DNA from: an uncultured Sulfolobales archaeon
GTDB lineage: Archaea > Thermoproteota > Thermoprotei_A > Sulfolobales > NBVN01
Direction of reading: 5' to 3'
Length of the DNA stretch: 64,000 nucleotides
NCBI GenBank assembly: GCA_938045815.1
Contig: CALIBI010000001.1
Span: forward strand, 4,111-68,110
The notes beneath the pieces were generated by a model. The model saw only the letters and a list, made by a program, of their open reading frames with translations. It did no database searches and was not told the origin of the DNA. This document shows, one piece after another, positions 5,418 through 60,615 of the stretch (position 1 is the first letter of the stretch; each line of letters begins with the position of its first letter). A program made the position numbers and the translations under genes.

Positions 5418-6152
5418 TTACTTTATCTCTTTATACAGAAGACACTCATTCTTGGAAGGTGTTCGTAAATCCTTAATGACGCCATCTCTTATTATGTATA
5501 TCTTGTTAACACAGTTAGCTACTTCAGGGTCGTGAGTCACGACAACGACTGTCTGACCTCTCGTGTTTATTTTCACGAAGGTATCTACAACTACCCTAGC
5601 TGACGCTCTATCTAGGTTTCCCGTAGGCTCGTCAGCTAGTATTATTTCAGGGTTATTTACTAAGGCCCTAGCTATAGCTACCCTCTGCTGCTGACCTCCA
5701 GACAACTGGGTTGGTTTCTTAATAAGCCACTCTTCCTCACCACCGACAGCTTTAAGAGCTCTCAAAATCATCTCGCGTCTTAAGCGAGGAGACACTCCAG
5801 CAGGTATGAGAGGTAGTTCTATGTTTTCGTAAACCGTCATGCGAGCAACTAGGTTGAACTGCTGGAAAACAAAACCGATCTTTTTGTTCCTGAGCCTAGC
5901 TAACTCATCTGAGGGCAGCACTGACACATCAACACCATCAACATACACCTTACCCTTAGTAGGTCTGTCAAGCAAGCCAATAATGTTGAGTAACGTGGTC
6001 TTGCCAGAACCTGAGGGACCCATTATAGCTATGAAATCCCCCCTCACTATGCTTAAGTTAACTCCCTTCAAAGCCCAAGTAACTACGTCACCTACCCTAT
6101 AAGCCTTCCAGACATCAACTAGCTGCATCAGCAATCCTTTCTCGTTACTCAT
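5418..6152 (-). CDS. ABC transporter ATP-binding protein (MacB/LolD-like)
   Basis: Walker A GPSGSGKTT, Q-loop FVFQQFNL, LSGGQQQR signature, ILADEPTG, VTHD. Confidence 0.95.
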   Translation of the reverse strand: MSNEKGLLMQLVDVWKAYRVGDVVTWALKGVNLSIVRGDFIAIMGPSGSGKTTLLNIIGLLDRPTKGKVYVDGVDVSVLPSDELARLRNKKIGFVFQQFNLVARMTVYENIELPLIPAGVSPRLRREMILRALKAVGGEEEWLIKKPTQLSGGQQQRVAIARALVNNPEIILADEPTGNLDRASARVVVDTFVKINTRGQTVVVVTHDPEVANCVNKIYIIRDGVIKDLRTPSKNECLLYKEIK

Positions 6153-7605: not shown

Positions 7606-8035
7606 GAAGAAGAGTCAAGAACACGCAAACAACACACTGTCCTTTCTTGACCACCACTCTCAAAAAGAATATCTTAAAATCATACTAAAAAGCTCCTAAG
7701 CTTAATGAATTCGTGAAAACTAAAACTATAAAATTCACGTAATCAACCACATATATTTGCGTCAAACATGTTCTGAATATTCATTTTTACAGATAGTTAT
7801 ACAAAAATTATGCAACAGACATCTTACTAGAAATCCTGGAAGTAAGAATACTAGGTTTATAAAGCTTGAATCCCTTGAAACGCTCTACTTAAACACTGTA
7901 GTGGGATCCTCAATAGATTCTGCCCACTCGTATTCTAGACCTCGTGAGTTTAGGTTTACTTAATATAGAGAGTAAATATCCTTGGCTCTGGGTTCCGAAG
8001 CATTAGAAGCTCGTTAGCTAGTAGGAAGTTCTTTC

Positions 8036-8770
8036 TTAGGTGGTTAGTGCGTATCTTCTTAGTACTTCATGGAGTTTTTCAGGGTTCTTTGTGTAGAGTC
8101 TAAGCTTAATGATTGTTCTGCCACTGCTGGGGGTCTGTATTAGGTCTACGTACATTCTCTTCGTATTGTATTCTATTCTGTACTGGTCAGCTCTTAAAGG
8201 AAACTTCAGCGTGATTCCAGTTCCTACAATACCCTTATCATATACTTCGTACTCAGCAATAACCTGAACAAATGATTTAACAGCTCTCCTCCCAACAAAG
8301 TTTATGACTTGAACAAGACCTAAAGGTACCTCATAACCAATCAAGTATGCTAGGAACCTATACTCAACAACCTCTATAGCTAGAGCTCTGATAAAGTCAA
8401 AATACCACCAATACCACACCAGGAAGACAGGAAATATTGCTAAATTTAGTAGCGAGACCTTAAGCATGGGCTTCAACTCAGAAACTAATTGCGTGTCTTT
8501 ACTTTGAAGCTCTAACACATCATTTCTTGATGCTTTAAAGAGTAGTCTACCAGTCTTAATCTCGCTTGGTGATACTCCACCACCCACTCTCGACTTCCTC
8601 ACACTCCAACTCGCGAAGAGTATCGCTACTATAAAGAACACTACAAAAGTGTACTGGTAGTACTGAGGATAGAACACGTTTATTACAGCCAAACTAAAAA
8701 CAAGTACTTGAGAATATATAAGCGAGAAAACCAGCTGTCTCCTGCTCTGGTAGTAAGCCACTACACTCAC
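8036..8770 (-). CDS. DUF2208-like archaeal membrane protein
   Basis: Two TM hairpins (SQVLVFSLAVINVFYPQY...) followed by a PH-like C-terminal beta domain; resembles the crenarchaeal family. Confidence 0.7.
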   Translation of the reverse strand: MSVVAYYQSRRQLVFSLIYSQVLVFSLAVINVFYPQYYQYTFVVFFIVAILFASWSVRKSRVGGGVSPSEIKTGRLLFKASRNDVLELQSKDTQLVSELKPMLKVSLLNLAIFPVFLVWYWWYFDFIRALAIEVVEYRFLAYLIGYEVPLGLVQVINFVGRRAVKSFVQVIAEYEVYDKGIVGTGITLKFPLRADQYRIEYNTKRMYVDLIQTPSSGRTIIKLRLYTKNPEKLHEVLRRYALTT

Positions 8771-8812
8771 CCTAAGGAAACTTAATTACGTGGTAATAAA
8801 TTACTACTTAGG

Positions 8813-9505
8813 TTGAGTAACGTGAGTAGGTTAGGACTGATCGCTTTGCTAGATAAGATGATCTCACAGTCTGAGATTATTGAGAAGTCTGGTACGAAGT
8901 ACGTGCTCAAAAGCTTCACGGGAGAGAAGTCATCTTTCAAGTGGTTTCCTTTAAGCACTTTTTTAAGCTTTATTTACCCATTTACGTACGACCCTAACGA
9001 AAGGTTAGAGAGAGAATTAGTTTTCTTCGGTCACGAATGGAAATACTTCAAGACACCTAAGATAGTTGAAGTCGATAAGGAGAACCATAAAATATTGCGT
9101 GAATACGTAGATGGTAGGATACTAGACACAGATATTGACGCAAACAAATTAGGTAAAGTCTTGGGGGAGATCCATAAGGAAGGTTGGGCATTAGGAGACG
9201 TGAAACTAACTAATTTCTTGATAGGTAGTAACGACTCAATATACGTTATAGACGCGGAGCAAGCCATATCTAAGGCGGAAACACAGCATATGGCTTGGGA
9301 CTTATACTTAGTTCTCCTAATAGCTAGCTACGCGTACATAAAATCACCCACTAAGTTTGAGGGATTCCTAGAGGATTTCTTATCCGGCCACGATGGCGTT
9401 TGCAACTGTAGAGAAATTTATGAAGGGTTCAATACGCCGAAGCTCCAAAGCCTCCTGATCCTACTTCCCCCTTCTCATCTTCTTAAGCTGGCTAAGGTGC
9501 TCTGA
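8813..9505 (+). CDS. Atypical Ser/Thr protein kinase-like protein (Bud32/RIO-like fold)
   Basis: VLKSF lysine, REYVDG hinge, LGDVKLTNF catalytic loop, IDAEQA Mg-binding loop. Confidence 0.75.
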   Translation: MSNVSRLGLIALLDKMISQSEIIEKSGTKYVLKSFTGEKSSFKWFPLSTFLSFIYPFTYDPNERLERELVFFGHEWKYFKTPKIVEVDKENHKILREYVDGRILDTDIDANKLGKVLGEIHKEGWALGDVKLTNFLIGSNDSIYVIDAEQAISKAETQHMAWDLYLVLLIASYAYIKSPTKFEGFLEDFLSGHDGVCNCREIYEGFNTPKLQSLLILLPPSHLLKLAKVL

Positions 9506-9594
9506 GTGCTTAAGTCATTGAATCTAATTGATGAAAGTCTTAAATATTTATTCGCTTCACATAAGAATTCTTATAGTGTAGGAGGGGTTCACAG

Positions 9595-10524
9595 TTGCTT
9601 GAAAAAAGACTTTACTTAATCATCCTGGTCTGTGTTGTTTTACTGTTGTCGGGAAGTCTAACACCCCAAGCTTCTGGTGACGTAAAATATACTTACGTTC
9701 TTTACCCTGACGGTCACGCTGACATTAAGGTTGTGTGTAATGTGACTGGAAGAGAAACTCTTGAACTCAGACTTGAGAAGGGATACATAGATATGACTAT
9801 CACTGTTTTCGCAGATAGTGGGACACCGTTACCTTACGTGTTAGAGCCTGATGGGAGGATAATCATCAACACTAGCCACCTAAACAATGTGACTATAGAG
9901 TATGAGGCAGTTGTAGGGGATGTTTTCGCTGAAGTTCAGGTCAACGTTCTCATAAGTCCGCTAGGTCCTGCAGACGTGATACTACCGCTTAATTCAGCTC
10001 TCCTATACTTTAGCGGCTCACCACAAGTATTCACGATCAGTGACCCGACAGGTAAGAATTTCTACATAGTTCTTAGTTACGATAAAGCAGGTACGTACGA
10101 GATAAGCTTTCTACTACTTCCTCGTGCAGAGACTCCTACTGAGACACCTAGTTCTCAAACAAGCCCTACACCCGAGAGTGTGGGGGTATCGACTACACTC
10201 ATTCTAATCTTAGTGGGTGTAGCAGCCGCGGCTTTACTAGGATACTTCATCATGAGGAGGAAGCTCGAGAAAGAAACCGTGATAGAGCCTCTACTAGAGC
10301 AAGGCTTTGACGAGCGGGATAAAGCGATTCTTAAAGCACTAGGTAGTGGAGAAGCTACCTTATCGGACTTAAGCAAAACAGTAAGACTCAACAAGTCTGT
10401 TGTTTGGAGAAGATTAGAGAGACTCAGAGAGCTAGGATATGTCGAGAAAGGTTATTCAAGAGGTAAGTCCGTGTATAAGCTGACACAGAAAGGACTGAAA
10501 ACCCTTAAAGATTTAGGTGATTGA
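9595..10524 (+). CDS. Membrane-tethered transcriptional regulator (extracellular domain, TM, cytoplasmic wHTH; COG2512-like)
   Basis: Signal peptide, T/P/S linker, TM, then wHTH (TLSDLSKTVRLNKSVVWRRLERLRELGYVEK). Confidence 0.8.
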   Translation: MLEKRLYLIILVCVVLLLSGSLTPQASGDVKYTYVLYPDGHADIKVVCNVTGRETLELRLEKGYIDMTITVFADSGTPLPYVLEPDGRIIINTSHLNNVTIEYEAVVGDVFAEVQVNVLISPLGPADVILPLNSALLYFSGSPQVFTISDPTGKNFYIVLSYDKAGTYEISFLLLPRAETPTETPSSQTSPTPESVGVSTTLILILVGVAAAALLGYFIMRRKLEKETVIEPLLEQGFDERDKAILKALGSGEATLSDLSKTVRLNKSVVWRRLERLRELGYVEKGYSRGKSVYKLTQKGLKTLKDLGD

Positions 10525-10533
10525 AGAGAATCT

Positions 10534-11522
10534 CTACGGGTTCCAGTTTTTCTTGGTATGCGGTCTCTCAAGCATGTCTTTTCTTCTCACTAACACTTTC
10601 GTTAAGTCATTACTCCTACTAGCTGGTTGCCCTCCTCCTAGGAGACAACCCCCTGAACACGCCCAAAAACTATCTTCTTGGGGGATCTAGCACGGTCTGA
10701 GAGAGCCTGCTTCAGATTCTTAATTTCATTAACTACTACCGCACCTTCCTCCCAACCTAATACCTAGTTCCTCAGTACTTAGTTCATTTATGAGTGACTG
10801 AAGCTCACGAGTAGTTGGTGAATTCACAAAGATTCTCCACGAGAGACGCTGTATTATGTAGATAGCGTCTTAAGGCATTCTTGGTGTGATTAGGTGTATA
10901 CTGTATTCGGGAACACTCCTACTGAGTATTGAGAACTCCACGAGAGATTCAGCCAGAATACCATTCTCCGCGATATTCTTGGCTTCACGCAGGTTTGAAT
11001 ATATGAATACCTTCGAGAAACCAATTAACCTGAGAGCAGAGATTATTTGCCCGATTCAAGATTCTCTGACCCCATAAGTGACGCTAGTGCTTCAGGCTCT
11101 ATATAGGCCGCCCTAAAGAAACCCTCACGAACCTTACCTAGCAGATCTTTTACTTTAGTTTAAAGACCTACAACTTCAACAAGACAGTGAGCAAAACAAA
11201 GTCCACAATTAACGCAACCAGCACTTTCTAGGGGTTCTTGATACGGCGTAGAAACGGTTGTATCTCTCTGAAAACGTAGTTTAGTGCTCTAACACCTACT
11301 AACGAACAAACTTCAACACACCTACCACAAACAACGCACTTAGACGTATCTATCTCGGTAAGTGACACTAATCCTAAAACTATCTCTATCGACTTTGCTG
11401 AACCTCCCGATACTAATACTGATTAGGTTGCTGCTAGCTAGATCCTCCAGTAACCTAACCAATTCGTTAGTGTTTATTGGGCACCCTCTGACGTAGTAGC
11501 CCGTCTTAACATAGTGATTTAC
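10534..11522 (-). pseudogene. Disrupted hybrid hydrogenase gene: [NiFe] small-subunit C-terminal fragment + 2x[4Fe-4S] ferredoxin + [FeFe]-hydrogenase H-domain homolog
   Basis: Manual translation across frames gives YVKTGYYVRGCPIN (11440-11522), CVVCGRCVEVC (11306-11338), CVNCGLCFAHC (11184-11216), GKIISALRLIGFSKVF, PTTREL (~10801-10818) and WACSGGCLLGGGQP (10624-10665). About 5 frameshifts plus in-frame stops at 11160-11162 and 10870-10872. Confidence 0.82.
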
Positions 11523-11976
11523 CTGTTAATCAGGTTTTCCAGAATTTCAGTAGTTATTGGTTCTACAAGTCTCAGCGTGGAGGGCATGTCTGTCTTTACG
11601 TCATCAAATATTACCTCACGTATTCTTGAGTTCGGTTCCGCTCTAAATAAACACGGAAGTACTTTCTCTAAGTCTCTCAGAAATTTTGAGTAATTCACTG
11701 TACTCAGTCCTTACCTCAACTCTAGTAACTTCCTCAACATATAATGCTATGAGTTTTCTTAGAGCTAAATCCGGCTCATCGATCTCGATTAATATGTTGA
11801 TGTTATCTAGTTCTTCCTGAGTGTGTGGCACTAAAGTTATTTTGGAGCAATCAAAAATCAGACCGACTTCATCACCGGGGTCTCACACCTATAGAGTCCG
11901 CCCACTTCTTAGGTATGACTACAGATAATGACTCTTTACCTACTAAGCCAACCTTCTTAATTATCTTCTCGGTCAC
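11519..11976 (-). pseudogene. Truncated, frameshifted AbrB/MazE-domain PhoU-type regulator
   Basis: MTEKIIKKVGLVGKESLSVVIPKKWADSIGVR / PGDEVGLIF...EPDLALRKLIALYV. Frameshifts at a C4 run (~11877-11880) and at ~11645; truncated at ~11520. Confidence 0.72.
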
Positions 11977-12067
11977 AGAGTCCAACCCAGTTAACGTTTG
12001 TTATCTGATCTTAAAGTTCTTCTTTTATTTATAAATTTCATTTACAAGATATTGTTGGTCGATAATA

Positions 12068-13282
12068 GTGAAGCAACCAACTCTTAACTATAACGTGATT
12101 CTAGATGACTTATCTGGAGAAAAAGCTTTTCAGTACATCTCGCGTGCTCGAGAATTAGCATCCAAGGGTTTTAACGTGATATCATTTGGGGTCGGTCAAC
12201 CAGACATACCTACACCTCAATTCCTAGTAGACGAAGGTAAGAAAGCTCTTGACGAGAGATTCACAGGATATACGGAGACTGAAGGAATTAAGGAATTGAG
12301 AGACGCTGTAGCAGAGTACCTCAACACACGCTACGGGAGCGACGTAAGGTCTGATGAGGTCGTGATAACTGCTGGTACTAAGGGTGCAGCATACCTAGCT
12401 ATGGCTGCTTACTTAAAGCCTAGTGACGAAATCATCGTGACAGACCCTACCTACCCAGTCTACTCTGAACTATCTAAGTTTCTCGGCGCTAGGCCTGTTT
12501 ACGCACCACTGAAATGGTTGGGTGAAGAGTCCGGATTCTCTCTAGATATAGACGCAATACATGAATTAATAACAAATAAGACTAAAGGCATAGCTATAGT
12601 TAACCCACACAATCCTACGGGAGCAGTCTTTAGTAGCAGGGAGGTAGAGAAACTTATGGACTTGGCTAGAGACTATAACCTCCTAATAATAGCTGATGAG
12701 ATCTACGATAACTTCCTCTACGAAGGAGCTGATTTCAAGTCCTTCATTAGTTTTCCTGACTGGAGAGACCACGTGCTTTATTGTAATGGGTTTTCCAAAA
12801 CTTTCTCCATGACCGGGTGGAGACTAGGCTACCTAGTCGCTAGGCGAGAAGTAACTAAAGCCCTCACTAAGCTAGCAGTGAATACCTGGTCTTGCCCACC
12901 ATCAATAGCTCAGAAAGTCGGTATTAAGGCTTTAAGAAGTGACTGGAGCTTCGTTCGAGAAATGGTGTCTTTATTTGACAAAAGAAGGATAACGTTATGC
13001 AGAGAATTAAAGCGAATTAAAGGATTTGAAGTATGGTGTGGTAAGGGAGCTTTCTACCTATTCCCGAGAATCTCGAAAATTTTAGAGGCTGCTGGATTAG
13101 GTGTGGAAACCTTCGTGACTAACTTAATGGAAGAAAAACACGTAGTAGTACTTCCCGGAACAGCTTTCCCAAAAGAATTCGGGAAAGACTTCATTAGGTT
13201 TAGTTACGCTATAAGTGAAGAAAAGATAGTAGAAGGGGTTAAGAGAATACGTGAGTTTGTAGAAGAGATAACCTCAAAATAA
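12068..13282 (+). CDS. Aspartate/aromatic aminotransferase, class I/II
   Basis: FGVGQPD, NPHNPTG, ADEIY and GFSKTFSMTGWRLGY (PLP lysine) motifs. Confidence 0.95.
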   Translation: MKQPTLNYNVILDDLSGEKAFQYISRARELASKGFNVISFGVGQPDIPTPQFLVDEGKKALDERFTGYTETEGIKELRDAVAEYLNTRYGSDVRSDEVVITAGTKGAAYLAMAAYLKPSDEIIVTDPTYPVYSELSKFLGARPVYAPLKWLGEESGFSLDIDAIHELITNKTKGIAIVNPHNPTGAVFSSREVEKLMDLARDYNLLIIADEIYDNFLYEGADFKSFISFPDWRDHVLYCNGFSKTFSMTGWRLGYLVARREVTKALTKLAVNTWSCPPSIAQKVGIKALRSDWSFVREMVSLFDKRRITLCRELKRIKGFEVWCGKGAFYLFPRISKILEAAGLGVETFVTNLMEEKHVVVLPGTAFPKEFGKDFIRFSYAISEEKIVEGVKRIREFVEEITSK

Positions 13283-13320
13283 TTGATAGAATTAATAAGT
13301 AGATACTTAACTTAATCTAT

Positions 13321-13384
13321 TTTTGGATGAAGAAAGCCAGGTGCTACGGAACCTAATGAAGAGAGAACCCCCGACTGACCAAAA
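13321..13384 (+). ncRNA. C/D-box guide sRNA
   Basis: C ATGAAGA 13327-33, 13-nt guide, D' CGGA 13347-50, C' ATGAAGA 13356-62, 12-nt guide, D CTGA 13375-78, closed by a 6-bp terminal stem TTTTGG/CCAAAA; intergenic. Confidence 0.78.
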
Positions 13385-13523
13385 TAGTTTTTAGAGCATC
13401 TCCTACCCAAGATAATCAGCGTCATTACACAGAGCCCCCACTAAGGAGGACAGCGAACGAAGGAATTCACGCCTCGCAAGCAGTAAGCAGAAACAAGTAG
13501 AACAAATTAAAGCTACTAACGCC

Positions 13524-30552: not shown

Positions 30553-30953
30553 TAAACACCACCAGCCGCCTTAGTAGTGGTTGATAAAGAAAGCTCGCTA
30601 GATTCTACGATTGTTGAAGAAGCAAGTCTGTACTCATTAGTAACTAAATACGCATTTACCGGACACACGGTAACACACCTATAACAGAAAACACACCTGA
30701 AATAGTCGACTACTGGATATATCCTCCTAGCATTAGTCTTAGGTGCTACATACTCATCAGGGATTTTAGTCATTGTTATGGCGTTCGCAGGACACTCTAC
30801 AGCACAGAGGGAACAACCAATACACTTCTTCAGATCCGCGTACTGTCTCCCCCTAAAATCTGGTTCTATGAGTGTTTGTTCTTTAGGGTACTGTATAGTT
30901 ACTGGCTTAACGAATATCCCCTTAATAATCTCCTTAATCAGACCCGGCCTCAC
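30552..30953 (-). CDS. mbhN: Membrane-bound hydrogenase 2x[4Fe-4S] subunit N (NuoI-like)
   Basis: PVTIQYP, CIGCSLCAVECP, CVFCYRCVTVCP. Confidence 0.9.
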   Translation of the reverse strand: MRPGLIKEIIKGIFVKPVTIQYPKEQTLIEPDFRGRQYADLKKCIGCSLCAVECPANAITMTKIPDEYVAPKTNARRIYPVVDYFRCVFCYRCVTVCPVNAYLVTNEYRLASSTIVESSELSLSTTTKAAGGV

Positions 30954-32152
30954 TTCCTAACACCTCCCAACTCCTTCAGAGGTACCTGATACCTGACACC
31001 TCTTCTTAAGTCTGTGATCACCGCTCTCTCCATGCAAGATATGCAGGGGTCGAAACTCCCCAGAATAATCGGTACGTCAGCTATCATCTGATCAACGTAA
31101 GTAAAAGCAGAATTAACTATGTTGTTTAGTGATGGGGTTCTTATCTTGACTCTATACGGTTTATCACCACCAGAACTACTGACATAGTATGTTAACTCAC
31201 CTCTAGGAGCCTCGACAGCCGCGTAAGACTCACCAACAGGGAACCTTCTAGGTAGTTTTCTCTCGTCAGGTACTGGATTACCTTGAGGCAGATGCGTTAA
31301 GATGTACCTCACCATATTTATAGACTCGTAGAGCTCCCCGAATCTTACCATAGCTCTCGCGTAGCTATCACCGTAATCCTCCGTAATAACATTGAACGGT
31401 ATATCGCCGTAAGCATCATACTTATCCTGAATTCTAATATCTGTTTTAATGCCAGAACCCCTAACCACAGGTCCTACTAAAGAATATGCTAGTGCTTCCC
31501 TAGGCTTTATCCTGCCCGTATCCCTCAGTCTTCTATTGATCGTCACGTCCTCCTGAAAGATCTTATGATAATATTTTATTCTCTCTTCAACCCTCTTAAT
31601 AATATCCAGTATCCTAGAAGTCTTTACCTCATCAATATCTCTCCTAACACCACCAACCATCATGTAATCAGCCATTACCCTCTGCCCAGTCAGTATCTCC
31701 TTAGATTTCATCACGTATTCTCTATCCTTCATTAAGTACATAAATAAAGTTTCGTATCCAGCAAGCTCGGCTGTTACAGCTAGTACGAGCATGTGGCTGT
31801 GAAGCCTCTCTAACTCCATCGAGAGAACTCTCAAGTACTTAGCTCTAGGTGGTGGATCTACGTCAAGTATGTATTCAAGCGCTCTCACGTAGCAGTTTGT
31901 GTGAACAGCATTACATATACCGCATACACGCCCAATTATGAATATATCTCTGTAGAAAGTGTTCTTCTCGGTCAGCTTCTCTATACCTCTATGGTTATAG
32001 CCCGTCATAACGTCTACCTTGATTATTCTCTCCCCATCCGCGTAAAGCTTCAGTAGTAGAGGCTCGTGTAACGCTGGGTGTTGAGGACCTACAGGTATCT
32101 CAACAGCCATAGGTATCTCGATCAGATGTGTGACTTCAACCATCTCAAACAC
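30950..32152 (-). CDS. mbhL: Membrane-bound [NiFe]-hydrogenase large subunit (group 4)
   Basis: GPQHP, HRGIEK, both Ni-binding motifs intact (RVCGIC, DPCISCMER), C-terminal extension after the Arg. Confidence 0.93.
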   Translation of the reverse strand: MFEMVEVTHLIEIPMAVEIPVGPQHPALHEPLLLKLYADGERIIKVDVMTGYNHRGIEKLTEKNTFYRDIFIIGRVCGICNAVHTNCYVRALEYILDVDPPPRAKYLRVLSMELERLHSHMLVLAVTAELAGYETLFMYLMKDREYVMKSKEILTGQRVMADYMMVGGVRRDIDEVKTSRILDIIKRVEERIKYYHKIFQEDVTINRRLRDTGRIKPREALAYSLVGPVVRGSGIKTDIRIQDKYDAYGDIPFNVITEDYGDSYARAMVRFGELYESINMVRYILTHLPQGNPVPDERKLPRRFPVGESYAAVEAPRGELTYYVSSSGGDKPYRVKIRTPSLNNIVNSAFTYVDQMIADVPIILGSFDPCISCMERAVITDLRRGVRYQVPLKELGGVRK

Positions 32153-32600
32153 CTGAGTCTTTCCTTAGCGGGTAGATATCTTTAGATGACACGTCCGCGG
32201 GAACAAAGAAAGATCTCCTTAGGTAGTTATTCCCATCAAATATTATTCCTAGTAGGTCGTAAGTCTCTAGCTCACCTGCCAGAGCACCGGGAACTAAGTC
32301 AATCACTGACGGTATGATTGGGTTTTCTCTAGGTAGGTAAGCTCGAATAACTAGGTATGTGTTGTGTCCGAACACATTAACGAAGTAATCAATACGTATA
32401 AGGTTTTTCTCAGGGAAGTCCGTGCCTTCTATGGTTGCGAGGTAGTAAGCTTCCCTGTCTAGAGTCTCAGACAATTTACTGAATACCTCCCTAATCTTGC
32501 TTGCCTCCACCTCAATAACTACTCTGTTAGGCTTCATGGTGTAGGAGTTAATCACGTATTCCTTAAGAAAATCAACCAGATTTAGATTCGTTACCATCAC
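32145..32600 (-). CDS. mbhK: Membrane-bound hydrogenase subunit K (NuoC-like)
   Basis: IPSV, ELETYDLLGIIFDG, YPLRKD. Confidence 0.88.
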   Translation of the reverse strand: MMVTNLNLVDFLKEYVINSYTMKPNRVVIEVEASKIREVFSKLSETLDREAYYLATIEGTDFPEKNLIRIDYFVNVFGHNTYLVIRAYLPRENPIIPSVIDLVPGALAGELETYDLLGIIFDGNNYLRRSFFVPADVSSKDIYPLRKDSGV

Positions 32601-33015
32601 CCCTCTCTAACTTCTTAAGTAGCTTAACGATGCCATCAAGTATTGCTTCCGGCCTGGGTGGGCATCCAGGTATGTACATGTCTACCTTAACCACCTTATC
32701 AGCCCCACCCACAACCGGGTAGGAACCCTGAAAAACCCCACCACTGAGAGCGCAAGCCCCGACAGCGACAACAAACTTCGGGTCAGGCATTTGCTCGTAG
32801 AGCCTCTTAAGTCTTTCAGCAGCCTTCTTCGTCACAGCTCCTGTGACGACTAATACGTCGCCGTGCCTCACGGAAGGAGCGAGCTTAACCCCAAACCTCT
32901 CTGGGTCGTAATGTGGTGTTATTGAAGCAAGAACCTCGATATCGCAACCATTGCACGCGCCGGTATTGAAATGTACTAGCCACGGCGAGTACTTAATTAT
33001 TTTGACTCGCTCCAT
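32572..33015 (-). CDS. mbhJ: Membrane-bound hydrogenase small subunit J (NuoB-like)
   Basis: CNGCDIE, DPERFG, VGACALSGG, IPGCPPRP. Confidence 0.93.
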   Translation of the reverse strand: MERVKIIKYSPWLVHFNTGACNGCDIEVLASITPHYDPERFGVKLAPSVRHGDVLVVTGAVTKKAAERLKRLYEQMPDPKFVVAVGACALSGGVFQGSYPVVGGADKVVKVDMYIPGCPPRPEAILDGIVKLLKKLERGDGNESKSG

Positions 33016-56672: not shown

Positions 56673-57749
56673 GTGTCATTAACAGGTCTTTATGTAGCTA
56701 GGGCTGATAGCTTAGGGATTCTTTTTAGTGAGTTGAGGAGATTAGGTTACGTGATTGTAGGGTATAGGGTGGTTGATGGGGTGTTAAGGCTTGAGGAGCT
56801 AGATTCTTTTGATGAGTTTGCTCATAATGTGGAGGACATTCAGAGCCCTGGTAAGTACTCGTTAGTTAGTGGTGGTTTCTATAGGCACGGGCCAGACTCG
56901 CCTAAAAGGTTTCTCTACCCGCCTACTCTAACTCTCTTCAGAGTTTCTAAGGAGTGGGTTGCGAGTACTCCGACGTATGAGGAACGTAATCTCGCGTTTT
57001 TTGGTTTAAAGCCTTGTGATTTAGCATCTATTAAAGTGCTTGATAGGGTTCTCTTGGGTGTTGACGAATATTACACGAGTCTTAGGAGGAATTTAGTTCT
57101 CGTAGTAGAGAATTGCACTAGTCCTGGTGGAACATGTTTTTGTAGTACCATGAATACGGGACCTAGAGCTAGAGACACTTTTGACTTAGCATATACTAGG
57201 CTAGGTGATAAGCTTGTGCTGGAGGCTGGTAGTGAGCTGGGTTTAAGACTCCTTGACGTTCTCGAGGTAGAACCCATTGATGATGCTACGTACGAGAGAT
57301 TTGAGGTAGTGATGCGTAACGCTAGTGAGAAAGCTAGAGCAGGGTTTGAACTAAACGGATTGCCTGAAGAACTTGAGCTACGTATAGAGTCTAAGGTTTA
57401 TAAAGAGGTTACTGAGAGGTGTCTCGGTTGCGCGAATTGTAACATGGTTTGCCCAACATGTTTTTGTTTCGATGTGCTTGACACCCCCTTAATCGACGGA
57501 TCTGCTGAGAGAGTTAGGGTGTGGGACGGTTGCTTGAACTTTACTTACGGTCAGGTAGCTGGAGGTCATTTCAGACCTGACTTGTGGGCTAGGTACAGGC
57601 ATTTCGTTCTCCACAAGTTTGCTTACTGGATAAAACAGTTCGGCACATACGGGTGTGTAGGGTGTGGTAGGTGTATTACCTGGTGTCCTACAGGCATAGA
57701 CTTGAGAGAGACCGTGAAGAAAGTTCTGAGAGGTGGTAAGGACGGGTAA
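56673..57749 (+). CDS. hyhB: Group 3b soluble hydrogenase beta subunit (Fe-S)
   Basis: KPCDL, CFCS, CLGCANCNMVCPTCFC, CVGCGRCITWCP. Confidence 0.93.
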   Translation: MSLTGLYVARADSLGILFSELRRLGYVIVGYRVVDGVLRLEELDSFDEFAHNVEDIQSPGKYSLVSGGFYRHGPDSPKRFLYPPTLTLFRVSKEWVASTPTYEERNLAFFGLKPCDLASIKVLDRVLLGVDEYYTSLRRNLVLVVENCTSPGGTCFCSTMNTGPRARDTFDLAYTRLGDKLVLEAGSELGLRLLDVLEVEPIDDATYERFEVVMRNASEKARAGFELNGLPEELELRIESKVYKEVTERCLGCANCNMVCPTCFCFDVLDTPLIDGSAERVRVWDGCLNFTYGQVAGGHFRPDLWARYRHFVLHKFAYWIKQFGTYGCVGCGRCITWCPTGIDLRETVKKVLRGGKDG

Positions 57750-58572
57750 GAATATGACTACTCTAACCCCTCTTAAAGCTCTAATAACTCGTGTGAGGAC
57801 CGAGACTTGGAATATTAAGACGTACTACGTGAAGTTACCTGATGAGGCTAAGTTACCTAAGCCAGGACAGTTCAACATGCTCTACATACATGGAGTTGGT
57901 GAAGTACCTATATCTATCAGCGATTTAGATGAGGAGTCTAGGATTGCTGCTCACACAGTTAGGTTTGTTGGTTCCGTCACCAAGACTTTCGAGTTACTTA
58001 AGGAAGGTGATATAATTGGGTTTAGAGGCCCTTACGGCATCGGATGGCCTATGGATGCTATGATCAACAAAAACATAGTCTTAATAGCTGGCGGGATCGG
58101 CCTACCCCCCTTAAGACCCGTAATAAGAGAGGTAGCTAGGAATAGAAGCGCTTACGGCAAGCTAATCATTCTTTACGGAGCTAGAACTCCTGAAGACCTC
58201 CTCTTCACCTACGAGTACAGCGACTACGAATCAATCCCTGACACAGAGTTCTACGTTACCGTGGATAAGCCTAGCGAGGGTTGGAAAAACAACGTAGGCT
58301 TTGTGACGAACCTAATAAAGTACGTGGACGTTAATCCCAGCGAGTCTTACGCGTTCGTGTGCGGTCCTGAGATAATGATGAAATTCGCTACTCAAGAGTT
58401 GCTTAAGAGGGGGTTCAAAACAAACAAGATCTACTTGTCTCTCGAGAGAAGAATGAAGTGTGGTGTTGGTTTATGTGGTCACTGTCAGATGGGTCCATAC
58501 TTTGTTTGTAAGCACGGTCCTGTATTCCCCTTATGGTTCATAAGTAAGTACTTTTGGGTTGATCAGATATGA
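57733..58572 (+). CDS. hyhG: Group 3b soluble hydrogenase gamma subunit (FAD/NAD(P))
   Basis: PGQFNML, GEVPIS, GGIGLPP, ERRMKCGVGLCGHCQ..VCKHGP. Confidence 0.93.
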   Translation: MVRTGKNMTTLTPLKALITRVRTETWNIKTYYVKLPDEAKLPKPGQFNMLYIHGVGEVPISISDLDEESRIAAHTVRFVGSVTKTFELLKEGDIIGFRGPYGIGWPMDAMINKNIVLIAGGIGLPPLRPVIREVARNRSAYGKLIILYGARTPEDLLFTYEYSDYESIPDTEFYVTVDKPSEGWKNNVGFVTNLIKYVDVNPSESYAFVCGPEIMMKFATQELLKRGFKTNKIYLSLERRMKCGVGLCGHCQMGPYFVCKHGPVFPLWFISKYFWVDQI

Positions 58573-59336
58573 GGAAGCTTAGAGTAGCTGTTTATAAGTT
58601 CTCTAGTTGTGATGGGTGTCAGCTACAGTTCCTAAATCTAGAAGATGAGCTGCTAGAGTTGAGTAACTTCATAGAGTTTGCTTTGTTTTATGAGGCTAGG
58701 AGATTCGTTGGTTCAGGTCCTTACGACGTAGCTTTCGTAGAGGGTTCTATCTCAACACCGCACGAGGTTGAAGTTATCAAGAAGGTTAGGGAGGAGTCTA
58801 AGATCGTAGTAGCTATAGGTGCTTGCGCCACTTCCGGCGGGATACAGGCTCTCCGTAATTGGGCTAATGAAAAGGAGTATAAGCTGTACGTTTATCCGAG
58901 ACCTGAGTGGATAGAAACACTTAAGTACGCGGAACCCCCATCAAAGTACATTAGGGTTGATTACGAGATACGTGGTTGTCCGGTTAGTAAGGAACAACTA
59001 CTTTCTTTTGTTCTACAACTGCTTAAAGGTAAGATACCTACACTGCCTGTTGACTCTGTCTGCGTGGAGTGTAAGAGGAGGGGGAATGTGTGTGTCTTGG
59101 TTGCGAGAGGGATTCCTTGCTTAGGCCCTATTACTATGGGGGGTTGCGGTGCTTTGTGTCCTTCGTATGGTAGGGGCTGTTACGGGTGTTACGGCCCCAT
59201 GATAGACCCTAAGCCGGAGGTTTTGAATGCGTGTTTTAAGGAGTTGGGTCTCAAGCCTAAAGAAATACAGCTTCTTTTCAAGCAATTTACTAACTGGTCT
59301 AAGGAGTTTAGGAGGGTGATTGAAGAGTATGAGTAG
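58569..59336 (+). CDS. hyhS: Group 3b [NiFe]-hydrogenase small (delta) subunit
   Basis: SCDGCQ, GACATSGG, RGCP, CVEC...CLGP...CGA.CP. Confidence 0.93.
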   Translation: MRKLRVAVYKFSSCDGCQLQFLNLEDELLELSNFIEFALFYEARRFVGSGPYDVAFVEGSISTPHEVEVIKKVREESKIVVAIGACATSGGIQALRNWANEKEYKLYVYPRPEWIETLKYAEPPSKYIRVDYEIRGCPVSKEQLLSFVLQLLKGKIPTLPVDSVCVECKRRGNVCVLVARGIPCLGPITMGGCGALCPSYGRGCYGCYGPMIDPKPEVLNACFKELGLKPKEIQLLFKQFTNWSKEFRRVIEEYE

Positions 59337-60615
59337 GGTTATTAAGGTAGACTACTTAGCTAGGGTTGAGGGGGAGGGTAGTCTATTCGTCGAGTTAGAG
59401 GATGACAAGGTTTCTAGAGTTGAGTTAGGTATTTTCGAGCCTCCAAGATTTTTTGAAGCGTTCTTAAGAGGTAGGAAGTATTATGAGGTCCCTGACATAA
59501 CTGCTAGGATTTGCGGTATATGCCCTGTAGCATACATAATGAGTTCTAGTAGAGCGTTAGAGAAGATACTAACTGTTGAAGTACCTGAAGAGATAGAGAA
59601 GCTTAGGAGGATAATATACCTCGGCGAGTGGATTGAGAGCCACATGCTCCACGTCCTCATGCTACACGCGCCAGACTTCCTAGGGTATGAGTCTGTTCTG
59701 AGTATGGCTAAAGACCATCCAGAGATAGTCAAGAAAGGTTTGAAGGTGAAGTGGTGGGGCAACCAAGTAATTAGGGTTGTGGGCGGTCGCTCAATGCACC
59801 CGGTTTCTTGCAGAATCGGTGGTTTCTACAGAATCATTAGGAAGGAAGAGTTACTCCCGTTACTGAAGGAGTTGAATCACGTGAAAGAGTGCGCGAGGAA
59901 GTTGTTGGAGTGGGTGCTGGAGTTACCTATGCCTGACCTAAGAAGAGAAACAGAGTTCGTGTCGCTTAGGGGTGAAGGCGAGTACCCGATACTTAAGGGT
60001 AGAGTGCTCTCTAGTAAGGGCCTCAATATATCTGAGGACGAGTTTGAAGATAATCTTATCGTAGAACAAACAAAGTATTCAACATCACTTAGGTACAGAC
60101 TTAAGGGTAGGGGTTACTACATCGTAGGTCCTCTCGCAAGATACAACAACAATTACGACCTCCTAGACCCTGAGGTTCGTAGTGTTGTGGAGTCTCACGG
60201 TTACGGCGCCCCCCTACATAACAGTTTCCAATCAATAATAGCTAGAGCTGCTGAAGTATATCACGCGGTCTTAGAACTAGAGGAACTAATTAATAGTTAT
60301 AGGGAGCCTCAACAACCTTACGTGGAGGGCGTAGTAAGGGGAGGTGCGGGTGCAGCAATAACAGAAGCTCCTAGAGGTATGCTGTACCACAAGTACGAAA
60401 TAAATGAGAGAGGATACGTAGTTGACGCCAACATAATACCACCAACCTCACAAAACCTAGCAAGCATAGAGCAAGATCTTCTAGCACTAGGTAACAAGCT
60501 AGCAACACTGAACCCAACAGACGCACAGTGGCTAGCAGAACAAACAGTCAGAAACTACGACCCATGTATATCATGCTCAACACACTTCCTCAAAATAAAG
60601 TACATCAACAAATAG
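59320..60615 (+). CDS. hyhL: Group 3b [NiFe]-hydrogenase large (alpha) subunit
   Basis: RVEGEG, RICGICP, DPCISCSTH plus a short cleavable tail. Confidence 0.95.
   Translation: MKSMSRVIKVDYLARVEGEGSLFVELEDDKVSRVELGIFEPPRFFEAFLRGRKYYEVPDITARICGICPVAYIMSSSRALEKILTVEVPEEIEKLRRIIYLGEWIESHMLHVLMLHAPDFLGYESVLSMAKDHPEIVKKGLKVKWWGNQVIRVVGGRSMHPVSCRIGGFYRIIRKEELLPLLKELNHVKECARKLLEWVLELPMPDLRRETEFVSLRGEGEYPILKGRVLSSKGLNISEDEFEDNLIVEQTKYSTSLRYRLKGRGYYIVGPLARYNNNYDLLDPEVRSVVESHGYGAPLHNSFQSIIARAAEVYHAVLELEELINSYREPQQPYVEGVVRGGAGAAITEAPRGMLYHKYEINERGYVVDANIIPPTSQNLASIEQDLLALGNKLATLNPTDAQWLAEQTVRNYDPCISCSTHFLKIKYINK

Follow-up and report, generated by a model that had tools for sequence, protein, structure and literature searches.

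The window analysed here, a 64,000-nucleotide stretch of contig CALIBI010000001.1 (GenBank assembly GCA_938045815.1) from an archaeon of the genus Zestosphaera (Desulfurococcaceae), carries on its minus strand, at 10534-11522, the 3' two-thirds of a gene in which a [NiFe] hydrogenase small subunit (HyhS) is fused to a domain resembling the [FeFe] hydrogenase subunit HydA. Comparison with intact relatives identifies this gene as a recently inactivated, 5'-truncated pseudogene from a published kind of operon. We consider it quite probable that it is the dead fusion gene of a NAD(H)-/ferredoxin-linked hybrid operon, in which the ancestral H-domain (the H-cluster domain of HydA) was non-catalytic and carried a [4Fe-4S] cluster ligated by one Ser and three Cys, before being lost by deletion and decay. 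The window itself holds only the dead gene, and the wider interest lies with its intact relatives among the archaeal hybrid [FeFe]/[NiFe] hydrogenases.

The L1, L2 and L3 motifs in the remnant and in intact relatives

When 40 related genomes were searched in six frames, orthologs of 442-477 residues with an unbroken reading frame turned up in seven of the nine other genomes of the genus, and also in several genera and families elsewhere in the order. The closest intact ortholog is encoded on the Logan contig L099 (protein P0004), at 92% DNA identity. In the intact fusions, the C-terminal part is a cut-down H-domain of about 200 residues, which follows a 2x[4Fe-4S] ferredoxin (F) domain. The window copy retains recognisable equivalents of the three motifs L1, L2 and L3, and the strings that an initial annotation had picked out were all found on the minus strand where it had placed them:

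10933..10959, minus strand: L1-equivalent ILAESLVEF; intact orthologs read ILA[KR]SPVEF.
10834..10857, minus strand: L2-equivalent IIQRLSWR; intact orthologs read [IV]TQCLSWR, and the invariant Cys is replaced by Arg (CGT, 10846-10848).
10624..10659, minus strand: L3 motif CSGGCLLGGGQP; both Cys and GGGQP are intact, and the Pro after the first Cys is replaced by Ser.

These motifs are read from a conceptual translation that crosses one nonsense codon and two frameshifting deletions. In L1, the family-invariant Ser (10945-10947) and Glu are retained and Pro is changed to Leu; the minus-strand string ILAESLVEFSILSRSVPEYSIHLITPRMP begins at 10959. The three segments are ILAKSPVEF, [IV]TQCLSWRNF and EVCPGGCLLGGGQP in the closest intact ortholog, and ILAESLVEF, IIQRLSWRIF and WACSGGCLLGGGQP in the window.

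The gap-free alignment of L1 with HydA proposed in the initial annotation was reproduced by both hhalign and MAFFT, with A-[RK]-S-P-V-E or P-[AV]-S-x-A-E pairing with S-C-[CS]-P-G-W. In the hhalign alignment, the position of the proton-relay Cys299 is occupied in the family by R, K, A, V, S and other residues, while the Cys300 ligand position holds an invariant Ser (S302), followed three residues on by an invariant Glu. No L1 Cys occurs in any of the 60 cluster representatives of the group of fusions treated below as the short clade, and it is absent from 47 of the 48 short-clade loci of GTDB species, the exception being one Thermofilaceae locus with a Cys at the relay position. The claim that the H-cluster cysteine of L1 had been lost was thus correct for the relay Cys and overstated for the ligand position, which is an invariant Ser.

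Ser at this position has a precedent. HydA1 of the Acetobacterium woodii HydABC (PDB 7Q4V) reads TSCSPGW where CpI reads TSCCPGW; there Ser301 takes the place of a Cys cubane ligand, with no effect reported on the infrared signature of the H-cluster, and the enzyme is active (Katsyv et al., 2023; PMC10021017). Ser at the Cys300 position is therefore a proven cubane ligand, and it is the same ligand position as that of the short clade's invariant Ser. Unlike the short clade, A. woodii HydA1 keeps the relay Cys, a full-length H-domain and an active H-cluster. The possibility that TSCSPGW is an alignment artefact was considered and rejected, because Ser301 replaces the cubane ligand in the A. woodii structure itself (PMC10021017). 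The exceptional Thermofilaceae locus (L068, JANXEW010000002.1) reads LVPCSIAE, with the same Cys-Ser pair as TSCSPGW, and its relay Cys has either been kept from an ancestor or arisen by reversion.

In L2, the Cys is invariant among intact relatives (ITQC, ITPC, ITSC). Where the canonical motif reads MPCxxKxxE, intact relatives have Thr or Ser instead of Met; in place of Lys358, Zestosphaera has Trp and the others Arg. The equivalents of Met353 and Met497, which with Lys358 hold the di-iron subsite, are not conserved, and neither is the upstream Met of the canonical L3 (ExMxCxxGCxxGGGQP). L3 itself is kept, as CPGGCLLGGGQP (CPGGCxxGGGQP) in intact relatives and, with both Cys, as the initial annotation had noted, and with GGGQP, in the window. 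Across 35 diverse relatives, seven residues (S302, E305, C335, C405, C409, G414 and Q415) never vary, and the L2 and L3 Cys are present in every complete short-clade sequence. Of the four ligand positions of CpI (C300, C355, C499 and C503), C300 is thus Ser in the whole short clade, and the other three are invariant Cys in intact relatives. The short clade has no equivalent of two segments that border the di-iron subsite of CpI, the SPQQ loop and the FGATGGVMEAA helix. A substitute fourth Cys, in the segment YSNLCEAKN of some Zestosphaera proteins, was considered and rejected, as it is variable even within the genus.

The stretch between L2 and L3 is indeed much shorter than in HydA, as initially described, with P0001, an intact Zestosphaera ortholog, having 70 residues where canonical HydA has 144-145. 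The spacings fall into a graded set:

Canonical HydA: L1-L2 55 residues; L2-L3 144-145 residues.
Long-clade fusions: L1-L2 47-49 residues; L2-L3 129 residues.
Middle clade: L1-L2 43 residues; L2-L3 88 residues.
Cys-Cys-retaining intermediates: L1-L2 35-37 residues; L2-L3 79-84 residues.
Short clade: L1-L2 33-36 residues; L2-L3 70-76 residues.

Clades and order of loss

In a maximum-likelihood tree, all HyhS-HydA fusions form one clade separate from bacterial HydA, with a Shimodaira-Hasegawa-like approximate likelihood ratio test (SH-aLRT) support of 100. Within it, the short clade, defined by its Cys-less L1, is monophyletic (SH-aLRT 98). Its sister group consists of two Brockarchaeota/Nitrososphaerota-type proteins which keep IPCC or IPCS, and these together with the short clade are sister to the long and middle clades, where the ligand Cys is kept as SWCP or SWCK. 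Thermoplasmata-type proteins fall within the Cys-retaining long and middle clades. The short clade brings together about 100 intact relatives, all but one of them without an L1 Cys. Because it is one well-supported clade, the L1 change is a single old event which took place after most of the domain shrinkage.

Judged from these sequences, the absence of the L1 Cys and the short L2-L3 spacing are ancestral, and long predate pseudogenisation. The initial annotation had argued that both the L1 and the L2 losses were probably older than the inactivation, and had pointed to the alignment of intact orthologs, and to whether they keep TSCCP and MPC, as the way to decide. For L1 the argument stands, since the closest ortholog already reads ILAKSPVEF and the loss is common to the clade, TSCCP being absent from the intact orthologs. 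It does not stand for L2, where the Cys is kept in all intact relatives and was lost in the window copy after inactivation.

The short clade accounts for 48 of the 52 fusion loci found in GTDB species representatives, a screen that is biased toward this clade because the query was a short-clade profile. Its hosts within the Thermoproteota are Desulfurococcaceae, Ignisphaera, Pyrodictiaceae, Thermofilaceae and Bathyarchaeia.

Two fusions from the other clades deserve a brief mention. The middle-clade protein P0137 (859 residues) has about 350 extra N-terminal residues, which by eye resemble a response-regulator receiver and a histidine-kinase ATPase region, and this hints at a sensory use of the fusion. 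Locus L071 (PWEN01000009.1), labelled Candidatus Nealsonbacteria, a bacterium of the candidate phyla radiation (CPR), encodes a long- or middle-clade fusion with SWCLPA, whose motifs are near-identical to those of the Thermoplasmata locus L072; its placement probably reflects a binning error or a transfer.

Homology of the C-terminal region with HydA

Pfam searches of the window's read-through translation returned ferredoxin matches only, with no match to PF02906, and a PF02906 search of the whole source genome gave zero matches. The homology with HydA is therefore shown via intact relatives, profile-profile comparison and fold search. Aligned by hhalign, a profile of 35 intact relatives and one of 15 bacterial HydA proteins matched over 309 columns with a probability of 100% and E = 8.6e-45. 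In a phmmer search of the PDB with an intact relative, residues 188-317 aligned to a region spanning the F-domain and the beginning of the H-domain in Thermoanaerobacter kivui HydA1, Thermotoga maritima HydA and CpI, and the L3 block aligned to ACPGGCxxGGGQP. An AlphaFold2 model of the Zestosphaera ortholog had a mean predicted local distance difference test (pLDDT) score of 83, and blocks scoring above 90 make up most of residues 240-370; its best Foldseek matches were the HydA proteins of T. maritima and T. kivui and CpI (E about 1e-17, query template modelling (TM) score 0.50-0.55). The Pfam profile itself sees little of the domain. PF02906 scored 21.5 bits against P0001, with a cut-off of 22.1, and 34 bits against the more distant L010, in profile columns 151-245 only; its overlap with the intact orthologs is confined to its last 40-95 columns. 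Profile comparison and modelled fold together indicate that the C-terminal region is homologous to HydA, far beyond chance.

Parts of the remnant

A three-frame translation of the minus strand over 10500-11900 has no long open frame, and recognisable pieces follow one another in shifting frames: RGCP, CVVCGRCVEVC, CVNCGLCFAHC, EPEALASL, ILAESLVEF...HLITPRMP*DAIYIIQRLSWR, TTRELQSL and CSGGCLLGGGQP. In addition to the three H-domain motifs, the remnant comprises the following:

10534..11522, minus strand: HyhS-HydA-like fusion pseudogene remnant as a whole, equal to codons 108-445 of the intact 445-residue ortholog plus the stop codon (tblastn with intact orthologs).
11478..11489, minus strand: RGCP, whose Cys is the last ligand of the proximal cluster in the [NiFe] small subunit; nearly all that is left of the HyhS domain.
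11184..11338, minus strand: two ferredoxin-type [4Fe-4S] motifs, CVVCGRCVEVC and CVNCGLCFAHC, in two different frames, with Fer4 family matches.

In the second ferredoxin motif, the CP-VGA tail has mutated to CLVEVV. For comparison, the intact fusion shows Oxidored_q6 (residues 13-134), two Fer4 domains and a C-terminal Fe_hyd_lg_C remnant in Pfam, and its N-terminus is sulfhydrogenase-delta-like, with four Cys for the proximal [4Fe-4S] cluster.

Deletion and decay of the window copy

The 5' end of the gene was removed by one clean deletion relative to L099. By blastn, window 8024-11522 aligns to L099 11116-7591 at 91.7%, and window 11523-13399 aligns, collinear with the first block, to L099 2352-475 at 93.5%, so that the left flank is joined exactly to the right flank. 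The 5,238 bp lost took with them the 3' half of a regulator gene, hydC, hydB, hydD, hyhL and codons 1-107 of the fusion. The lesions at and around this junction are:

11522..11523, no strand: clean 5,238-bp deletion junction (blastn against L099).
11160..11162, minus strand: nonsense codon, AAA to TAA relative to L099; codon 123 of the retained segment, codon 230 of the ortholog (GL*TKV at 11151-11168).
10870..10872, minus strand: nonsense codon, CAA to TAA relative to L099; codon 327 of the ortholog (PQDA to P*DA).
11523..11985, minus strand: frameshifted 5' remnant of an AbrB/MazE-type regulator gene, about 151 codons (tblastn with the G004 regulator, residues 4-163 over three frames).

The fusion remnant further contains five frameshifting deletions, of 2, 4, 1, 20 and 1 nt, at about 11365, 11265, 11049, 10764 and 10663, and the regulator remnant a +1 insertion at about 11881 and a -2 deletion at about 11645, all relative to L099. 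The regulator gene heads the operon in intact relatives, where its intact homolog matches Pfam MazE_antitoxin. Against L099, the ratio of nonsynonymous to synonymous substitution rates (dN/dS) is 0.45-0.46 in the two remnants and 0.06-0.15 in four intact flanking genes. Several family-invariant residues are altered in the fusion remnant (D115G, P223L, G225E, A226V and C335R), and the Arg codon CGT at L2 is one transition away from TGT. On these comparisons, the change of the L2 Cys to Arg is drift after inactivation. Two further Zestosphaera species lack the whole operon.

The operon in intact relatives

In genome G004 and in L099 the fusion is the last gene of a six-gene operon, in the order regulator, hydC (NuoE-like), hydB (NuoF-like), hydD (like the N-terminus of NuoG), hyhL ([NiFe] large subunit) and the hyhS-hydA fusion. 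In both, the operon sits between the same genes, encoding a helix-turn-helix (HTH) membrane protein and an aminotransferase, that flank the remnant in the window. Pfam assigns 2Fe-2S_thioredx to HydC; Complex1_51K, NADH_4Fe-4S and two Fer4 domains to HydB; Fer2_4 and NADH-G_4Fe-4S_3 to HydD; and NiFeSe_Hases to HyhL, which has RVCGVC and DPCIPCAVH. The gene order is kept at the genus, family and order level, with hyhL, hydB, hydC and hydD collinear in G004, G003, G017, G030 and L099. A search for the maturases HydF and HydG in 41 family genomes gave no match above the curated cut-off.

One detail of hyhL concerns its start codon. In G004 (L013, G004:C3, 10873-11055, minus strand), the conserved N-terminal 61 codons up to RVCGVC contain no ATG, GTG or TTG, and L099 has an ATG at 5975-5977, six nt after GAGGTGA, where G004 has ATA. 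This suggests an ATA start in G004 or translational coupling to hydD.

Comparison with known hybrid and bifurcating hydrogenases

The operon has the architecture published for the group F [FeFe]/group 3f [NiFe] hybrid hydrogenases of archaea (Greening et al., 2024; PMC11216029). As in these, intact orthologs carry HyhS at the N-terminus and a HydA-like domain at the C-terminus of one protein, hyhL, hydB, hydC and hydD (all four deleted from the window) adjoin the fusion gene, and the hosts are found in Thermoproteia and Bathyarchaeia. The published group is described as having a true H-cluster domain with conserved ligating Cys. In contrast, the short clade has no relay Cys and has Ser at Cys300, lacks the SPQQ and FGATGG segments, and has an L2-L3 spacing half as long; the window copy is, moreover, a truncated pseudogene in which the equivalent of C355 is now Arg. 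The published methods give a sequence filter that names the L3 CxxxC motif only, the model and assays concern Thermoplasmata proteins, and the host classes of the 21 group F genomes include Thermoproteia and Bathyarchaeia (PMC11216029). The group F set of Greening 2024 is likely to include short-clade members. In the text of PMC11216029, no statement that Thermoproteota members lack the L1 Cys was found.

A closer parallel in mechanism is offered by the electron-bifurcating NiFe-HydABCSL of Acetomicrobium mobile (PDB 7T2R/7T30), in which the H-cluster of HydA is replaced by a dead-end FeS cluster, A5; A5 lies on a side branch, and the [NiFe] site alone activates H2 (Feng et al., 2022; PMC8880783). 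Like this enzyme, the intact archaeal relatives combine a Bfu-type HydB/HydC/NuoG-like module with [NiFe] large and small subunits, and have a HydA-derived domain that lacks elements of the [2Fe] pocket. Unlike it, they have the N-terminal part of HydA as a separate hydD, and the F-domain and H-domain remnants fused behind HyhS, while A. mobile HydA is one chain of 692 residues apart from HydS. By analogy, A5 is the nearest mechanistic precedent for the cluster predicted in the archaeal remnant. At the family level, what is new is a modest variant of a published kind of operon, with a stripped H-domain which probably keeps a Ser/Cys3 cubane.

Cofactor of the ancestral H-domain and alternative readings

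The intact ancestor probably retained a [4Fe-4S] cluster. The set of Ser, Cys, Cys and Cys does not vary among proteins only about 33-37% identical, which argues for a bound cubane; a di-iron subsite is made less likely by the loss of the relay Cys and of the pocket elements and, weakly, by the absence of HydF and HydG. The non-catalytic, repurposed ancestor of the initial annotation is thus, we infer, still the best-supported reading, in the form of an electron-transfer or scaffold module. Several points weigh against it. The invariance of the four residues fits a cubane, and would fit a working H-cluster equally well. Very small H-domains, such as those of group E (about 286 residues), are active. 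The absence of maturases is weak evidence, since HydEFG are also missing from most archaea whose [FeFe] hydrogenases are active. Furthermore, group F enzymes are said to keep their H-cluster cysteines, and two Thermoplasmata fusions made H2 after the addition of [2Fe]adt (PMC11216029). A rival reading is a true hybrid enzyme, in which the H-domain of about 200 residues binds a full H-cluster on a Ser-ligated cubane and uses an alternative proton path, the window then being a dead [FeFe] hydrogenase. All four cubane-ligand positions are filled and invariant, Ser ligation is compatible with an active H-cluster in A. woodii, the group reported active includes long-clade fusions that have no relay Cys (SWCP), and archaeal [FeFe] hydrogenases generally come without HydEFG. 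We nevertheless regard it as improbable: the [2Fe] site has lost the SPQQ loop and FGATGGVMEAA helix that line it, Zestosphaera has Trp in place of Lys358, neither Met353 nor Met497 is conserved, the L2-L3 stretch is half the canonical length, and PF02906 is matched over its last 40-95 columns only. Its central premise, that so short an H-domain would assemble a di-iron subsite on a Ser/Cys3 cubane without the relay Cys, SPQQ, FGATGG or HydEFG, has in our estimate only a small chance of being right. Were a di-iron subsite present, these enzymes would be two-site hybrids with the smallest H-domain known, and the window would record the recent loss of such an enzyme. At the other extreme, the H-domain remnant might be a pure scaffold, free of cofactor, that docks HyhL or HydD. 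HydA of A. mobile is wedged between HydB/HydC and the HydSL [NiFe] module, and its A4/A5 branch has been called a non-functional remnant (PMC8880783); the invariance of Ser/Cys/Cys/Cys and GGGQ at about 33-37% identity is, however, hard to explain without a bound cluster, which makes this possibility unlikely, if worth keeping in mind.

Two further explanations concern the lesions rather than the cofactor. All motif losses, L1 included, could be post-inactivation drift of a once-canonical HydA, and several family-invariant residues, the L2 Cys among them, have indeed changed in the window copy. Yet ILAKSPVEF is already the reading in the closest intact ortholog (92% DNA identity), and every intact short-clade relative is without TSCCP. 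By these alignments, drift is already refuted for L1 and for the shortened spacing and holds for the L2 Cys only; as a general account it is extremely improbable. It is also very doubtful that the frameshifts and the deletion are errors of assembly or sequencing in a metagenome-assembled genome, with the gene intact in the organism. The source genome is a 72-contig draft, but the lesions are limited to the two remnants and spare four flanking genes; the remnants hold two nonsense substitutions, a 20-nt deletion, a raised dN/dS and changes at invariant residues; the exact junction of the 5.2-kb deletion lies within one contig; and two other species of the genus are entirely without the operon.

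If the H-domain was non-catalytic and held a cubane, H2 chemistry in the intact complex would take place at the [NiFe] site only. The H-domain remnant would hold a Ser/Cys3-ligated [4Fe-4S] cluster as an electron-relay or side-branch cluster and might also serve as a docking scaffold. In the source genome, the whole enzyme was then lost through one 5.2-kb deletion, after which neutral decay set in that included the L2 Cys to Arg change. Short-clade complexes would then be archaeal counterparts of the bacterial bifurcating enzyme NiFe-HydABCSL and not two-site hybrids, and annotations of H2 metabolism which count short-clade fusions as [FeFe] hydrogenases would need revising. Taken in order, the long, middle, Cys-Cys-retaining and short clades outline how an H-domain is reduced step by step to an Fe-S module.

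Other hydrogenase-related genes in the window

Two other loci in the window are related to hydrogenases or to complex I. At 56673-60615, plus strand, lies an intact four-gene sulfhydrogenase-like group 3 [NiFe] cluster, with homologs of the beta, gamma, delta and alpha subunits of Pyrococcus HydBGDA/ShyBCDA; all its matches fall well under the NCBIfam equivalog cut-offs, which makes it a divergent relative. At 30950-33015, minus strand, NuoD-like (399 residues) and NuoB-like (146 residues) genes belong to a membrane module of the complex-I/Mbh/Mbx type. The presence of this intact cluster and of the NuoB/NuoD-like module may be the reason why loss of the operon was tolerated.

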